Below, in pieces: positions 4,042-64,000 of a stretch of 64,000 bases of DNA. This DNA comes from an uncultured delta proteobacterium (GTDB lineage Bacteria; Myxococcota_A; Polyangia; Polyangiales; Polyangiaceae). The translations under genes and the position numbers were made by a program. The notes below the pieces were generated by a model, which saw only the letters and a list, made by a program, of their open reading frames with translations, had not been told where the DNA came from and searched no databases. The stretch's first letter is position 1. The number at the start of each line of letters is the position of its first letter. The stretch is from NCBI GenBank assembly GCA_963716725.1, contig CAVQUB010000003.1, positions 64,001-128,000 on the forward strand, read 5' to 3'.

Positions 4042-4443
4042 ATGGCGCGAGACAAGATCGTGAAAGACGAGGCCGAGTGGCGACGCGATCTGACCGACGA
4101 GCAGTATCGGGTGACGCGGCAGAAGGGCACCGAGCGCGCGGGCACCGGCAAGTACTACGGTGCTGCGGACGCCGGCGTGTATCGCTGCGTCTGTTGCGGA
4201 GCCGACTTGTTCTCGTCCGAAACCAAGTACGACTCGGGCAGCGGCTGGCCCAGCTTCTGGGCGCCGATGCTGAAAGAGAACGTCGAGCTCGAAGGCGACG
4301 CCAGCCTCGGGATGCGCCGGATCGAGGTCAAATGCGCGCGCTGCGACGCGCACCTCGGCCACGTCTTCGAGGACGGCCCGGAGCCCACGGGGCTCCGGTA
4401 CTGCATCAACAGCGTGTCGCTCGAGCTCGAGAAGCAGCGCTGA
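4042..4443 (+). CDS. msrB: Peptide-methionine (R)-S-oxide reductase
   Basis: GTERA, Cxx[28 protein letters not shown]. Confidence 0.97.
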
Positions 4444-4444
4444 G

Positions 4445-5272
4445 TCAGCTCGACTTCACTGTCCCGATCTTGGACACATCGAAGTTGAACGAACGCTTGC
4501 CGTTGCTGACGGTCACCTTGATGGTGTCCTCGTCCACGCGCTGGAATGACAGCCCGAGTTTCTTGTTCTTGGGCGTGAGCAGGTTGTACGAGCCGGCCTG
4601 AGGGACCGGATCGACCCAGCGCATCTGGACACCGTCGATGGTGAGGTTCCACTCGCCGCGGACGCTGGCCCAGGAGCGGTGTCCGTCAATCTCGATGCCC
4701 TCGAGCACGCCGCCCGCCAGCGGAGTCTGGGTGCGGTCACCCTGCCCGCTGACCGCGAAGCCATCGTGAACCCGCGTCCACTCCACCTGGTGAACGACCT
4801 TGCGGCTCAGTTCCTGGAAGTCCCAGGTCACGTCCGCGGTGCCATTCAGCTTCACCACCCCGTTGGTCAAGTCTGCCCAGGTGTGGTGGACCAGCACCTG
4901 AGCTTGGTCGTTCTTCTCGACCTGGATCGAGTGGGTCCCGCTGAATTTGTGCCCCTTGTACGTGCAGTTTCCGGGCTTGGCGCCGTACTTCACGGTCAGG
5001 GTCGCGTCGGCCAGGGTGATCTCCGCGCAGGGCAGCTGGGTCCCGACAACATCGCGGATTTCCTGGGCCGCGTTCTCGACCGCCTGACCAATGGTGAAGC
5101 TGGTCGTGATCTCCACCGACGCGGATTGCAGGCTCTGAGCCTGGGAGGACAGCGTCGACTCTTCGACCGCCTGCAGGGCCTCGGCGAAGGTGAGGGTGTC
5201 GTCTTCCTTCTCTTTGGGGCAGCCACTGAGAACAACCGTCAACACCAGACCCACGAGCGCGCGATAACGCAT
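4445..5272 (-). CDS. Beta-rich lipoprotein of unknown function
   Basis: Lipobox LSGC; AGGAGG RBS; upstream sigma54 site. Confidence 0.75.
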
Positions 5273-5300
5273 GATGAAACCTCCTAGGACCACCCAGACT

Positions 5301-5365: not shown

Positions 5366-7485
<2,120 letters not shown>

Positions 7486-31915: not shown

Positions 31916-32938
31916 ATGCGTGCGAACGAACTCCCCCCGCTGACGGATCCTCGAGGGCGACCCCTCAGGGATCTGCGCCTCAGCGTGACCGATCGCTGCA
32001 ACTTTCGCTGCCGCTACTGCATGCCGAAGGAACACTTCGGCCCCGGATTTCGCTTCTTGCCGCGCGCCGATCTCTTGCGCTTCGAGGAGATGACCCGCGT
32101 GGCTCGGGTGTTCGCCTCGCTGGGCGTGAAGAAGCTGCGCCTGACCGGCGGCGAGCCGCTCCTGCGATCCGATCTTCCCGATCTCGTCGCTCAGCTCGCG
32201 GCCATCGACGGCGCCGAGCTCGCGCTCACCACCAACGGTTCACTGCTCGAAGCGCGCGCCGATGAGCTGGTGCGCGCCGGCCTCAGCCGCGTCACCGTCA
32301 GCCTCGACTCGCTCGACGAAGCAATATTCCGCGAGATGACCGACGCGGCTCTTCCGCCAAGCAAGGTGATCGCCGGCATCGAAGCCGCTGCGCGTGCCGG
32401 CCTGCGCCCGGTCAAGATCAACTGCGTGGTGCGCCGCGGCGTGAACGACGCTGGCATCGTCGATCTCGCGCGTCGCTTCAAGGGCACGGGCCACATCGTG
32501 CGATTCATCGAGCTGATGGACGTCGGCGCCACCAACGGTTGGCGCATGGATCAGGTGATGAGCGGCGCCGAGATCGTCGACACCATCTCGCGGGCGCTGC
32601 CCCTGGAGCCGGCGTCACCGACCTACCGCGGTGAGGTCGCCAAGCGCTGGCGCTACACCGATGGCAGCGGAGAGATCGGCGTCATCACCAGCGTCACGAA
32701 CCCCTTCTGCGGCGACTGCTCCCGGGCGCGCCTGAGCGCCGAGGGCAGCGTCTATACCTGCCTGTTCGCGACCTCGGGCACGGATCTCCGGGGGCCGGTC
32801 CGCGCGGGCGCGACGGACGAGGAGCTCGCCGAGATCATCCGCGGGATCTGGTCTCGGCGCGACGATCGCTACTCCGAGCTGCGCTCCGACAATACGCGCA
32901 GCCTGCGTCGCATCGAGATGAGCTACATCGGCGGGTGA
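31916..32938 (+). CDS. moaA: GTP 3',8-cyclase
   Basis: LRLSVTDRCNFRCRYCM, LTGGEP, TTNG, SLDSL, RFIE.M, FCGDCSRARL, MSYIGG. Confidence 0.97.
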   Translation: MRANELPPLTDPRGRPLRDLRLSVTDRCNFRCRYCMPKEHFGPGFRFLPRADLLRFEEMTRVARVFASLGVKKLRLTGGEPLLRSDLPDLVAQLAAIDGAELALTTNGSLLEARADELVRAGLSRVTVSLDSLDEAIFREMTDAALPPSKVIAGIEAAARAGLRPVKINCVVRRGVNDAGIVDLARRFKGTGHIVRFIELMDVGATNGWRMDQVMSGAEIVDTISRALPLEPASPTYRGEVAKRWRYTDGSGEIGVITSVTNPFCGDCSRARLSAEGSVYTCLFATSGTDLRGPVRAGATDEELAEIIRGIWSRRDDRYSELRSDNTRSLRRIEMSYIGG

Positions 32939-60273: not shown

Positions 60274-60339
60274 AATCCCGAGTTGACCGTCGTCATGTCG
60301 ACCCGCGCCGGCGCGTGGGACCCTCCGGGTCGAGGCATC

Positions 60340-60762
60340 ATGGATTCCTTCAGCGTATGCGAGTCGTGCCATCGGCACATCAAGGCGACCGAAACAGCGT
60401 GTCCGTTCTGTCGCTCGTCCAAGAGCCGCATCGGCGTGACCGCCGCGCTCGTGGTGGGCGTCGGGCTCTCACTCGCCGCATGCGGTGGTGATGGCGACGG
60501 CGGAGGCAGTGGTGGCACCGGCGGCGCGGCGACGGGCGGCAGCGGTGGCACCGGTGGCACCGCGACCGGTGGCGCAGCTGGGAGCGGCGGCGCGGCAGGC
60601 AGCAACACCGGCGGCCAGGGCGGCATCGCACCGGCCTACGGACCTCCTCCGATGGGCGGCGCGGCCGGCACGGCGGGATCGGGCGGCTCGGCAGGCAGCA
60701 ACACCGGCGGCCAGGGCGGCGCAATGCCAGCGTATGGTCCACCGCCGTCCGACGCGGGCTGA
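60340..60762 (+). CDS. Zn-ribbon/lipobox Gly-rich protein with 2 AYGPPP motifs
   Basis: CESCHRHIK..CPFC, LSLAACGG, IAPAYGPPP, AMPAYGPPP. Confidence 0.85.
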   Translation: MDSFSVCESCHRHIKATETACPFCRSSKSRIGVTAALVVGVGLSLAACGGDGDGGGSGGTGGAATGGSGGTGGTATGGAAGSGGAAGSNTGGQGGIAPAYGPPPMGGAAGTAGSGGSAGSNTGGQGGAMPAYGPPPSDAG

Positions 60763-60764
60763 AG

Positions 60765-61124
60765 GTGAACTCGTACGTCGTCTGTGAGTCGTGTCGGCGA
60801 CACGTGAAATCGGATTCGAGTGCGTGTCCGTTTTGTCACGCGGGCAAGCGCCATTCGGCGGCGGCAACCGCGGTGATCGTGGGCGTCGGACTGTCGCTCT
60901 CGGCCTGCGGGGGTCCGAACTCCGGCATGCCCGCGCCCGTTTACGGGCCACCGGCCCACACTGAGCAAGGCGGCGGGCCGGCGACGGTCTACGGCCCACC
61001 TCCCGTGGACGAGCACTCCGGCGATCATCACGGCGAAATCGCGGGCGAAGATGCCCTAGTGGACAGAGACGCGGGCCCGTTGGCGGTCCCCGCCTACGCG
61101 CCTCCACCGCCTCACCCGCACTGA
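60765..61124 (+). CDS. Zn-ribbon/lipobox protein with 2 VYGPP and 1 AYAPPP motifs
   Basis: CESCRRHVK..CPFC, LSLSACGG. Confidence 0.85.
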   Translation: MNSYVVCESCRRHVKSDSSACPFCHAGKRHSAAATAVIVGVGLSLSACGGPNSGMPAPVYGPPAHTEQGGGPATVYGPPPVDEHSGDHHGEIAGEDALVDRDAGPLAVPAYAPPPPHPH

Positions 61125-61193
61125 ACCGCGCTCCGCTGTCGCGTTGACATCCATCATCTCGCTGACTGCGCGGGCGTGGAAGACTTCCGACCC

Positions 61194-61643
61194 ATGGAGT
61201 CGTTCTTCGTCTGCGAATCGTGCCGTCGGCACGTGAAGGCCGCCGAGAGCAGCTGTCCATTCTGTCGCACCTCGCGCAGTCGCATGGGCGTCACCGCCGC
61301 TCTCGTGGTCGGCGTCGGTCTCTCGCTGGCCGCGTGCGGCGGCGACACGGATCGTGATGGCGGCGGCGGCACCGGCGGAGCTGCCAGCGGCGGCACGGGC
61401 GGCAGCGGTGGCGGAGTCGCCGGCAGCGGCGGCGCGTCGAGCGGTGGCACCGGCGGCGACGCTGGCAGTGGAGGCATGGTCTCGCTCTACGGCCCACCGC
61501 CGGTGGGCGGCGCGGCCGGCACTGGCGGCGCTGCGGGCTCCGCGGGGTCGGGCGGCGCGGCCGGCACTGGCGGCGCTGCGACGGGCGGCAGCGGCGGCGG
61601 TGCTCCGCTCTACGGTCCGCCTCCGCCTCCTCCTGACAAGTGA
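61194..61643 (+). CDS. Zn-ribbon/lipobox Gly-rich protein with 2 LYGPPP motifs
   Basis: CESCRRHVK..CPFC, LSLAACGG, MVSLYGPPP, GAPLYGPPP. Confidence 0.85.
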   Translation: MESFFVCESCRRHVKAAESSCPFCRTSRSRMGVTAALVVGVGLSLAACGGDTDRDGGGGTGGAASGGTGGSGGGVAGSGGASSGGTGGDAGSGGMVSLYGPPPVGGAAGTGGAAGSAGSGGAAGTGGAATGGSGGGAPLYGPPPPPPDK

Positions 61644-62132: not shown

Positions 62133-63527
62133 TCAGCGCGGCAGCTGGTTCCACTGCCGCGAACGCTCGCGCCACGGCATTGCCTCTTCGAGCTGCCGTG
62201 ACAGGCGCAGCACCACGTCGTCGCGGCCCTGGCGGCCGACGATCTGAACGCCGTAGGGCAGCCGGGAGTCGGAGACGCCCGCCGGGATGCTGGCCGCCGG
62301 TTGTCCGGTCACGTTGAAGGGCGCGGTGAAGCTGCCGAGCGCTGAGATCGCGATGAAGGCCGCCTCGGGTTCGAGCCCGGCAAACGCGCCGACCTTGGGC
62401 GCGTACTGACCCACGGTCGGCGTCAGCAGCACGTCCGCGTCGCCGTGAAACTCGAGCACGCGCTGCAACAACACCTGCTTCAAGCGCTGGGTCTCGGCGT
62501 GGTCGAGCCCGCGCCCCACCTGGCGCAACCAACGGGTCACGGGCTGCAGCACGCTCTCGCTGATGGACGGCACGTTGGCCAACATGCGTTGCCAGAGCGG
62601 AAGGAAGTCCTCGAGTCGGCCTTGCACCATCGGCACTTGCTCCACGCGATGTCCGAAGCCCTCGAGAATGTGCGCTGCGCTCTCGACGGCCGCCGCGATC
62701 TCCGGCTCCACGTGCCCTATCATGGCTTCGGTGCAGAAACGGATCTTCAGTGAGCGCAAGGTCGGCAAGGCCTGCTGGGTGAGGCAGCTGTCTTGCGCAT
62801 AGTGCCTGTGCGTCATGGGGTGACCGCGCATCACGTCCAGCATGGCCGCCGCGTCTGCCACGTCGTGCGTGAGGGGTCCCATGGTGGACAGCGCCAAGGT
62901 GTTCACGCGCCCGTGCAGATTGCCGAGCAGGCTGTGGGTGGGCTTGAAGCCGTAGAGGTGACAGAACGCTGCGGGGATGCGCACCGAGCCGCCGCCGTCG
63001 GAGCCGTGCGCCAGCGGAACGAGCTCCGCGGCCACCGCCGCACCGGAGCCGCCGCTGGAACCGCCAGGGGTGTGCTCGGGGTTCCACGGATTGCGCGTCG
63101 GAGCGTGGATCAAGGGCTCGGTGACGGGCAGCGCGCCAAACTCGGAGGTGGCCGTCTTGCCCAGGACCACGAAGCCGCCGCGCTTGAGCAACTTGGTCAC
63201 CGGTGCGTCGATGGGAGCGCGAAAGTAGCGGAACGCGCGCGAGCCCAGCTGAGTGCGCGTCCCGCGCATGAGCGCCAGGTCTTTGAGCCCGAGGGGAACG
63301 CCGTGGAAGATCGGTAGCTCGTCCGCCGGAGTCGAGCGGCTCTTCTGGTCCTTGCCGCGTGCGGCTCGCAGCGCGCTCGCCTCGAGCACACTCACGAACG
63401 CGCTGTACTTGCCGTCGAGCTGCTCGATGCGCGAGAGGTAGAAGCGGCAGGCTTCTTCGCTGGAGATCTCGCGCTGCCGAATCGCGGCGGCGAGCTCCAG
63501 GGCGGTCATCTTCAATAGCTCGTGCAT
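62133..63527 (-). CDS. Amidase signature family protein
   Basis: HGVPLGLKDL, GKT.TSEF, TPGGSSGGSGAAVAA, GSDGGGSVRIPA, FNVTGQPA. Confidence 0.95.
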   Translation of the reverse strand: MHELLKMTALELAAAIRQREISSEEACRFYLSRIEQLDGKYSAFVSVLEASALRAARGKDQKSRSTPADELPIFHGVPLGLKDLALMRGTRTQLGSRAFRYFRAPIDAPVTKLLKRGGFVVLGKTATSEFGALPVTEPLIHAPTRNPWNPEHTPGGSSGGSGAAVAAELVPLAHGSDGGGSVRIPAAFCHLYGFKPTHSLLGNLHGRVNTLALSTMGPLTHDVADAAAMLDVMRGHPMTHRHYAQDSCLTQQALPTLRSLKIRFCTEAMIGHVEPEIAAAVESAAHILEGFGHRVEQVPMVQGRLEDFLPLWQRMLANVPSISESVLQPVTRWLRQVGRGLDHAETQRLKQVLLQRVLEFHGDADVLLTPTVGQYAPKVGAFAGLEPEAAFIAISALGSFTAPFNVTGQPAASIPAGVSDSRLPYGVQIVGRQGRDDVVLRLSRQLEEAMPWRERSRQWNQLPR

Positions 63528-63575
63528 TGCGCGTCGCTCTAGCTCGAAGTCGAGCGGGATGCGAGACTCGGCCCC

Positions 63576-64000
63576 ATGAAAGACGGCCTGGGTCCAGCAG
63601 CCGTGCGTCGCCTGGCGGGCGCGCTCCGGAGGTCCGACCCGAGCTTCGACGAGGCCGCCTTCGTGCGCGATGCCTGTCGCGGCCTTGCCCAGCTCGAGCT
63701 CAAAGCGCGCGTGCAGCACGTGATCGATTCTCTCGAGCGCCATCTGTCCGAGAATTTTCCGCGCGCGCTCGAGATCGTGGTGGGCGCGGGCGAGCACCGG
63801 GACAGCGGTGACGCCGACGACCCGCTGCGCGGCTTTGCTTGGTGGCCGCTGATCGACTGGGTCGCGCAAGCAGGCCTGCACGACTTCGATCGTTCCATGG
63901 CCGCGTTGCGCCGGCTGACCGGGTTGTTCTCGGCGGAGTTCGCCGTGCGCCCCTTCCTGGAGCGCTACCCAAAGCGGTCCCTCACGCTGTTGAAGCGCTG
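63576..64000 (+). CDS. alkC: AlkC-like DNA alkylation repair glycosylase (partial; not in the ORF track)
   Basis: Manual translation MKDGLG..FDEAAF..LELKAR..WP..LT..FSAEFAVRPFL. Confidence 0.8.
   Translation, partial: MKDGLGPAAVRRLAGALRRSDPSFDEAAFVRDACRGLAQLELKARVQHVIDSLERHLSENFPRALEIVVGAGEHRDSGDADDPLRGFAWWPLIDWVAQAGLHDFDRSMAALRRLTGLFSAEFAVRPFLERYPKRSLTLLKR

Follow-up and report, generated by a model that had tools for sequence, protein, structure and literature searches.

The stretch of DNA analysed here, referred to as the window, comprises 64,000 nucleotides of a contig (CAVQUB010000003.1, positions 64,001 to 128,000) from an uncultured delta proteobacterium of the Polyangiaceae, and has a G+C content of ~68%. 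Near its end lie three tandem small open reading frames (ORFs), all on the + strand, which appear in the ORF listing as 60283–60762, 60765–61124 and 61176–61643 and are called P1, P2 and P3 below. Alignment with orthologues pointed to an ATG at 60340 for P1, a GTG at 60765 for P2 and an ATG at 61194 for P3 as the likely start codons. Each start is located 6 residues ahead of the first cysteine, and the predicted proteins are 140, 119 and 149 amino acids (aa) long, respectively. All three have the same layout: a cysteine motif of the zinc ribbon type (residues 7–24), a few basic residues, a hydrophobic stretch and a low-complexity tail. The ribbon motif CESC[HR]RH[IV]Kx5CPFC occurs in the three proteins at residues 7–24, the hydrophobic stretch closes with L[AS]AC at residues 45–48 followed by GG, and the tails of P1 and P3 are rich in Gly, that of P2 in Pro and His.

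The P1 gene (60340–60762), delimited from the ORFs and the orthologue alignment, encodes the putative zinc ribbon CESCHRHIKATETACPFC at residues 7–24 (60358–60411), which was recognised by its sequence motif, the alignment, an AlphaFold2 (AF2) model and the complex model described below. It further encodes a lipoprotein-type signal with the candidate lipobox LAAC (60472–60483, Cys48) and a Gly-rich tail with two PAYGPPP sites (60631–60651 and 60727–60747). In the AF2 model, P1 consists of a small two-strand unit (predicted local distance difference test score, pLDDT, of 85 for residues 1–20), a helix at residues 22–47 and disorder thereafter. The P2 gene (60765–61124), taken from the ORFs, starts with its GTG 2 nt past the P1 stop and encodes the ribbon CESCRRHVKSDSSACPFC (60783–60836), the candidate lipobox LSAC (60897–60908) and a Pro/His-rich tail with the sites PVYGPPA (60936–60956), TVYGPPP (60984–61004) and PAYAPPP (61089–61109). 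The last of these has Tyr-Ala instead of Tyr-Gly and may be no substrate site. The P3 gene (61194–61643), again from the ORFs and the orthologue alignment, encodes the ribbon CESCRRHVKAAESSCPFC (61212–61265), the candidate lipobox LAAC (61326–61337) and a Gly-rich tail with two LYGPPP sites, SLYGPPP (61482–61502) and PLYGPPP (61605–61625). These findings agree with an earlier note on this DNA, which had described three paralogs with CxxCxRH..CPFC and L[AS]AC, together with seven motifs of the form x-Y-[GA]-P-P; these motifs were recovered exactly as it listed them.

Codon-position GC (GC3) gave no frame separation for P1–P3 in this Gly-rich DNA. As this test was uninformative, P1–P3 are considered to be coding because conserved homologues exist at the protein level. 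A word-indexed search returned 11 homologues, of which the best (P0001, 49% identity), from a metagenome-assembled genome (MAG) of the Polyangiaceae, was the sole named one and is called 'RING-HC finger protein' by NCBI. Pfam and NCBIfam scans of P1–P3 gave only weak RING-like matches below the cut-offs and no family.

Every tyrosine behind the lipobox of P1–P3 lies inside one of the seven x-Y-[GA]-P-P motifs. The residue preceding the tyrosine is Ala at both sites of P1, Val, Val and Ala in P2, and Leu at both sites of P3. Genome-wide, Y[GA]PP was counted 122 times in 12,273,117 residues (six-frame ORFs of at least 60 aa), so that ~0.004 occurrences would be expected in the 408 aa of P1–P3, where 7 were observed (~1700-fold over the genome background).

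A search for SPASM domains over the whole 7.9 Mb genome gave 8 matches, 2 of which adjoin ribbon genes. One encodes a radical S-adenosylmethionine (SAM)/SPASM enzyme of 402 aa on the minus strand (G000:C3:128713-129921, which would be window positions 64713–65921), hereafter the C3 enzyme. It lies 3.07 kb past P3 and 713 bp beyond the end of the window, convergent to the P1–P3 array. The other, the C8 enzyme (385 aa), has an ATG that overlaps the stop of a fourth ribbon paralogue (ATGA, 4-nt overlap); the two genes occupy L010:6638-6892 (+) and L010:6889-8046 (+), that is, G000:C8:228638-230046. This fourth paralogue, MLVQCPDCQRHV...IGC-AYGMPP, has a single AYG immediately behind the lipobox Cys. 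When the six-frame genome translation was scanned with the strict ribbon pattern, 4 ORFs were found, all at most 3.1 kb from the C3 or the C8 enzyme. The earlier note had stated that no splicease-type radical SAM enzyme is encoded in the window, and this is correct: of 63 PF04055 matches in the genome, one is inside the window (31982–32473), and it looks unrelated.

Both enzymes score above the cut-offs of PF04055 (Radical_SAM) and PF13186 (SPASM). Their best NCBIfam family is TIGR04103 ('nif11-class peptide radical SAM maturase 3'), with 421 bits for the C3 and 500 bits for the C8 enzyme, followed by TIGR03913 with 396 and 440 bits, every other family staying at or below 155. They are the only two proteins of the genome with more than 400 bits on TIGR04103. 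The genome-wide search for PlpX-like radical SAM/SPASM genes proposed in the earlier note, which had also considered that the genome might hold no splicease, has returned two TIGR04103-best genes beside ribbon genes. The cluster cysteines C28, C32 and C35 and seven cysteines of the SPASM region are invariant in 40/40 aligned enzyme rows, and the enzyme fold was modelled with confidence (pLDDT 89.8). A CxxC..CxxC ribbon was not found in the C-terminal extension of the C3 and C8 enzymes, unlike in the TIGR03913 type.

We assessed the kinship of these enzymes to known spliceases by way of family models and aligned relatives. Family TIGR04103, which we take to be identical with IPR026482, was not mentioned in the literature covered by a full-text search for its name. 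A cyanobacterial locus (L031) encodes an enzyme with 829 bits on TIGR04103, above the cut-off of 725, and the gene preceding it encodes a Nif11-leader precursor (57.9 bits, cut-off 32.3) with QPLYGG and QPLYGI. The L031 enzyme is 47% identical to the C3 enzyme in the alignment and 53% identical to the C8 enzyme; with those members of the aligned family that are more distant, the C3 enzyme shares 46–54% identity. Trees were built with FastTree (81 rows) and with a short IQ-TREE search (42 rows: 40 enzymes and 2 outgroups). Both trees place L031 and the TIGR03913 loci within the set of ribbon-linked enzymes, with L031 as sister to a ribbon-linked enzyme (support 98); the root is weak (79). With respect to the PlpX clade, TIGR04103 is the top match of the C3 and C8 enzymes at 421 and 500 bits, against the cut-off of 725. 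No solved splicease structure was found, the nearest structures being SkfB and PqqE by sequence, and SkfB, PqqE, SuiB, CteB and anSME by fold. PlpX itself has been assigned to IPR026482 (PMC11002830), and PlpX, PcpX, RhaX, RasX and RcsX are described in the papers cited here as excising a tyramine equivalent (C8H9NO) at X-Tyr-Gly, which yields an alpha-keto-beta-amino amide.

The C8 enzyme was scanned against species-representative genomes, and the best 80 of 589 related loci were surveyed. Strict ribbon ORFs, 76 in number, were present in 55 of the 80 enzyme loci; a relaxed CxxC..CxxC pattern added 12 loci, which brings those with ribbon and Tyr-Gly genes to 67/80. Most ribbon ORFs (64 of 76) are located downstream on the enzyme strand, 43 of them within 300 bp, and 2 lie just upstream. 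Of the remainder, 6 overlap the enzyme by stop-to-stop reading, 2 are on the opposite strand and 2 have no enzyme ORF by a crude rule. The 13 loci that are left without a ribbon include 1 cyanobacterial locus with a Nif11 precursor, 4 loci of the TIGR03913 clade from Blastocatellia/Pyrinomonadaceae, of which two were scored with the model of that family, and several cut by contig ends. The single-site 'GC-AYG' form of the precursor goes with a distinct enzyme clade in 10 loci. At one locus, L082:4229-5897 (+), an apparent natural fusion of enzyme and precursor was rejected, as the enzyme match starts at 4229 and the open frame at 4401 in a different frame; the read-through into a complete ribbon-lipobox-YG precursor is likely an assembly indel in a long-read MAG.

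Orthologues of the C3 enzyme, 79–86% identical, occur in four genomes of the same genus. In 4/4 of these congener loci, a P1 or P3 orthologue stands tail-to-tail (within ~16 bp) with the enzyme gene: P1 orthologues abut the radical SAM gene in congeners, and in L093 the P3 orthologue does. One congener has the matching gene order of kinase, P1-like, P3-like, enzyme, short-chain dehydrogenase/reductase and two more genes. In the window, the array is separated from the C3 enzyme by an amidase gene identified by family scans (62133–63551, minus strand), which is outside the system. A DNA_alkylation-repair-like gene, at 63576–64000 (+) and running off the window, also lies between them. Neither gene stands between the P3-like gene and the enzyme in the congener with the matching order, and the congener loci examined showed neither of them in the interval from precursor to enzyme. 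Based on this adjacency and gene order, we regard the C3 enzyme as the cognate partner of the P1–P3 array and the two intervening genes as a local difference. The Ser/Thr protein kinase gene upstream of P1 (58656–60273, +), whose product starts with a CPSC..C zinc-ribbon-like stretch and contains a membrane segment, has a counterpart in two congeners (L091 and L093), where a kinase gene likewise lies next to the precursor on its upstream side.

Moreover, a ribbon profile of 30 positions was run on 41 genomes (this one and 40 relatives). A ribbon was found in 23, all 23 of which also have an enzyme match, while 3 have the enzyme only, 15 neither and 0 the ribbon only. These genomes are kin, so the counts are not independent, and the enzyme threshold also lets in paralogues of a more distant type; in G013 and G036, such a paralogue is the sole match. 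Ribbon matches are expanded in some genomes (18 in G034, 9 in G040, 8 in G036 and 8 in G006) versus just 1–2 enzyme matches (2 in G034), and G036 has its 8 ribbon matches with no close enzyme in its 1,220 contigs. Among the dispersed copies, 19/20 of those fetched keep Tyr-Gly in the tail, and one enzyme may serve many dispersed precursors. The proposal of the earlier note that the enzyme would act in trans needs correction: for the array itself, the cognate radical SAM gene is found just past the window and abuts the precursors in congeners. Dispersed copies needing service in trans exist as well.

Across the enzyme loci, the tails are hypervariable, with the Tyr-Gly motif as the sole conserved element, and as many as 5 precursor genes stand in tandem at a single locus. 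Of the 221 tail tyrosines in the 76 locus precursors, 194 belong to a Tyr-Gly, as compared to a mean of 45.4 and a maximum of 64 in 1000 shuffles; [PA]xYGxP was counted 120 times versus 1.7 expected, and the consensus of the site is [PA]-[ALVP]-Y-G-[AG]-P-P. The ribbon profile was also run on a library of 1.84 billion cluster representatives and matched 3,851 of them with E ≤0.001 (clusters at 50% identity). Tails of 60 aa or more are found in 138 of the best 150 among the 3,851 matches. A lipobox-like Cys was seen in 122 of these 138 and one or more Tyr-Gly in 123, and 276 of their 328 tail tyrosines are followed by Gly. As a side observation, this genome also holds ribbon-less ORFs with 5 to 9 copies of GYGPPP or GYAPPG repeats, at G000:C15:197949-200471 (+), C6:191853-193133 (-) and C11:291727-293205 (+).

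The ribbon residues C7, C10, R12, H13, C21, P22, F23 and C24 are invariant in the orthologue alignment. The C3 enzyme has no N-terminal recognition domain, its cluster motif beginning at residue 28. We modelled the complex of the C3 enzyme with full-length P1 and obtained a score of 0.91, against 0.01 for the best of 3 controls. This mark was reached by 116/157 solved complexes and 2/215 mismatched pairs, counts that are rough, as our own alignments were used. The runs share at least 46% of contacts, and the pLDDT of the partner is at least 67. All confident contacts of P1 are located in the ribbon (residues 1–2, 4, 6, 10–13 and 22–23, including the invariant R12, H13, P22 and F23), and those of the enzyme are at residues 240–246, 254–258, 325–329, 353 and 356. 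The earlier note had proposed the ribbon as the leader by which the maturase recognises its substrate, and this idea now has the support of a model: predicted binding suggests that the ribbon is a leader or activator element.

To look for lipoprotein signals, we used a simple pattern test, a PROSITE-like core with a preceding K/R. By this test, a lipobox-type core is present in 3/3 window proteins, 54/72 locus precursors and 121/142 library matches, as compared to 1, 3 and 9 in shuffled sequences. Once the ribbon is set aside, the segment of basic residues, hydrophobic stretch and lipobox fits a lipoprotein signal, and lspA and lgt are both present in the genome. No conserved third gene (Y protein, protease or transporter) was found beside the enzyme in 82 loci; the next neighbour cluster occurs in 8/82, and the biggest of the other clusters are antisense shadows that the enzyme gene casts. 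Since no dedicated protease or exporter is conserved, the simplest scheme would be modification in the cytoplasm, followed by Sec export, lipidation and removal of the leader by signal peptidase II.

Overall, the sequence and model data make it probable that P1–P3 are the precursors of a binary spliceotide-type system, with a PlpX-related radical SAM/SPASM partner and with maturation through the lipoprotein pathway. Each precursor would be made with an N-terminal zinc ribbon in the cytoplasm, and this ribbon would dock on the PlpX-related enzyme, of which the cognate copy is probably the one at G000:C3:128713-129921. Prior to export, the P-x-Y-G-P-P sites in the disordered tail would be modified by the enzyme, which would most likely excise C8H9NO (a tyramine equivalent) and so convert each x-Tyr-Gly into an alpha-keto-beta-amino amide. 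The hydrophobic segment and the lipobox would then route the modified tail via Sec, Lgt and LspA, the ribbon leaving with the signal peptide. The product would be a lipid-anchored envelope protein with multiple ketoamides, plausibly a protease inhibitor. What we infer in this scheme is that tyramine is excised, that modification precedes export, and that the product is lipidated, located in the envelope with exposure at the surface and active against proteases, as well as the tuning of specificity by residue X that the earlier note had suggested.

Several observations weigh against this explanation. Neither enzyme reaches the curated cut-off of TIGR04103 (725) or that of TIGR03913 (591.75), and the lineage of the C3 enzyme sits on a long stem (1.01 changes per column), because of which its chemistry could have shifted. 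In this genome, the C3 enzyme is not adjacent to the array; it is convergent to it, with two unrelated genes intervening. One of the seven window sites is Tyr-Ala. The complex model contains no Tyr-Gly site among its confident contacts, and several contacted enzyme residues (G241, P242, Y325, Y326 and H353) show a conservation of 90–100% across the 40 rows, among them ribbon-less relatives, so that the docking site may be a general pocket. A lipobox-like Cys is absent from 15/76 locus precursors, even with a loose pattern. Finally, an oxygen-sensitive cytoplasmic enzyme must act ahead of Sec export, an order of events that we infer.

Some of these points leave room for other explanations. The same pair of enzyme and substrate might carry out another chemistry at Tyr-Gly, such as a cross-link, a C-H functionalisation or an epimerisation, with no tyramine excised. 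This would suit scores below both curated family cut-offs, the long stem of the C3 lineage and the different chemistries of the nearest solved folds (SkfB, PqqE, SuiB, CteB and anSME). We nevertheless judge it unlikely, in view of the 47% (C3) and 53% (C8) identity to the TIGR04103 member L031, whose Nif11 precursor has PLYG, of the nesting of L031 among ribbon-linked enzymes, and of the P-x-Y-G-x-P substrate motif, which matches splice tags derived from PlpA. Regarding the other end of the pathway, a lipobox core with a preceding K/R in 54/72 and 121/142 members versus 3 and 9 in shuffles, a Cys whose position at the helix end is invariant in close relatives, and the lack of any other leader protease conserved nearby speak for lipidation rather than for an uncleaved signal-anchor, which would make P1–P3 non-lipoproteins that span the membrane once, with a cytoplasmic ribbon, whether modified or not. 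The Cys at residue 48, an unusually late position in a lipoprotein signal, the 15 of 76 members without a lipobox-like Cys and some planctomycete forms without any hydrophobic segment would be easier to understand with such an anchor, which we hold to be improbable.

P1–P3 could also be ordinary, unmodified Pro/Gly-rich envelope proteins in which PxYGPPP is a binding or spacer motif, with the radical SAM enzyme serving something else or the ribbon protein being an accessory factor. Ribbon-less ORFs with GYGPPP-type repeats elsewhere in the genome and the 3 kb that separate the array from the enzyme here are compatible with this view. It is at odds with the adjacency and co-occurrence data, with up to 5 tandem copies per locus whose hypervariable tails keep just the Tyr-Gly motif, and with the binding supported by the complex model, and we give it little credence. 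A chance pattern in GC-rich, low-complexity, non-coding DNA might come to mind, with long ORFs in all frames of this region and no frame separation by GC3; it was rejected on account of homologues with the same architecture in many genomes and of a motif enriched ~1700-fold. The preferred explanation is still the binary, lipoprotein-routed spliceotide-type system.

This proposed system resembles the type I systems of Pleurocapsa (PlpA/PlpX/PlpY and PcpAXY), as far as these are described in PMC11414181, PMC10533398, PMC11002830 and PMC5995677. Both have a radical SAM/SPASM enzyme, the best family here being the PlpX-type model, and both have precursors with one or several X-Tyr-Gly in a P-x-Y-G-x-P context, with several precursor genes per enzyme. 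Splice tags derived from the PlpA core follow the same frame (...RP-[L/G]-YG-LP..., that is, P-x-Y-G-x-P; PMC10533398). In contrast to type I, however, a zinc ribbon here replaces the Nif11 or nitrile-hydratase-like leader, and the precursors match no leader family. The present loci moreover lack a conserved PlpY-like partner (82 loci), their precursors have a lipoprotein-type signal, and their enzymes score below the TIGR04103 cut-off. Type I systems are reported to need the small Y protein, whereas type II systems are binary, and in models a helix of their leader occupies the enzyme site that Y does (PMC11414181). The type II systems of Rheinheimera (RhaX/RhaA, RasX/RasA and RcsX/RcsA), as presented in PMC11414181 and PMC11626197, are similar to ours in being cassettes of enzyme and precursor with no Y protein, in which an N-terminal precursor element is proposed to bind and activate the enzyme. 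This element is a leader alpha-helix in type II, whereas the models predict a four-Cys ribbon of two short strands here; likewise, their products are small disulfide-containing peptides, whereas the present tails are disordered, 70–100 residues long and located behind a lipobox. PMC11626197 describes inhibition of serine and cysteine proteases by spliced peptides and a lack of it for unspliced ones.

With regard to export, the closest parallel is with the diacylglyceryl (DAG) class of ribosomally synthesised peptides with post-translational modifications (RiPPs) made by multinuclear non-haem iron-dependent oxidative enzymes (MNIOs) of the ChrH/DybH type. In these DAG-RiPPs, the precursor has a lipoprotein signal and is modified in the cytoplasm, after which the general lipoprotein pathway takes care of lipidation and leader removal (PMC13056109). 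They differ in the enzyme and the motif, which are an MNIO and CPxCGxG there and a radical SAM enzyme and xYG here (PMC13056109). As far as PMC13056109 describes them, no zinc ribbon precedes their signal, and the words 'radical SAM', 'rSAM', 'splice' and 'zinc' were looked for in that paper without a match.

A further relative is TIGR03913 ('GDL motif peptide-associated radical SAM/SPASM maturase'; loci L062, L067 and L079), a sister enzyme family with neighbouring small ORFs that hold PLYG or PPYG and with a CxxC..CPHC ribbon in the system. The difference is that the enzyme there carries this ribbon as a C-terminal fusion, and that the peptides have neither ribbon nor lipobox. For example, the enzyme of L067 (L067:5944-7455, +) scored 651.6 bits on TIGR03913 over model positions 2–474 of 477, and the small ORFs upstream of it, at 5052–5294 and 5723–5938, hold PPYGVAI and QPLYGRPI. 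This suggests from the sequences that TIGR03913, too, is a family of maturases acting on Tyr-Gly. The enzyme-fused ribbon resembles the engineered fusion of enzyme and leader reported in PMC11414181. A kinship of this fused ribbon with the precursor ribbon was considered and set aside as a hint rather than evidence, given 15.5 bits for L067 and no detection in L062 and L079.

Radical SAM/SPASM genes with YG-rich neighbours were mined by Scott et al. (2022), who reported splicease-like enzymes in 189 genera and 27 confirmed pairs (PMC10849128); the number of systems that they predicted is given as 939 (PMC10533398). Spliceotides and lipoprotein-routed RiPPs have both already been published, and the present loci may already be in the lists of Scott et al. 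(2022). Our literature search, which did not reach that survey itself, found no work, among the papers listed, joining spliceases or spliceotides with a lipobox, a zinc ribbon or lipoproteins. The family is large and lacks annotation. As the enzymes are below the curated cut-offs, standard pipelines are unlikely to flag these loci. What native hosts finally make as spliceotides is described in a review as still elusive (PMC9811515). A lipid-tethered product would offer a place to look for them and a function to test. If confirmed, the system would be the radical SAM counterpart of the MNIO DAG-RiPPs, with general lipoprotein enzymes doing leader removal and export, and the zinc ribbon would be a compact recognition module that could aim spliceases at chosen proteins.

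We tentatively extend this to a broader picture, which is possible and in our view somewhat doubtful. With at least 3,851 clusters, the ribbon family could be a vast class of ribosomal natural products that has no name so far, in which a four-Cys zinc ribbon stands in for the usual leader and recognition element and docks on the SPASM part of a splicease, signal peptidase II is the leader protease and the lipid-anchored product has as many as six ketoamide warheads. Myxococcota and Planctomycetota with a predatory lifestyle might display such products on envelope or vesicles and thereby block proteases. In that case, spliceotides would have their first native localisation and function.

Apart from the C3 and C8 enzymes, the genome encodes a third, more distant radical SAM/SPASM protein with 246 bits on TIGR04103 (L115:3938-5308, minus strand, within G000:C21:151001-156308). 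After it on the same strand (L115:1-3969) comes an ORF of ~1,300 aa with a lipoprotein-like N-terminus (..TTFACGG..), and the two are possibly another pair of enzyme and lipoprotein.

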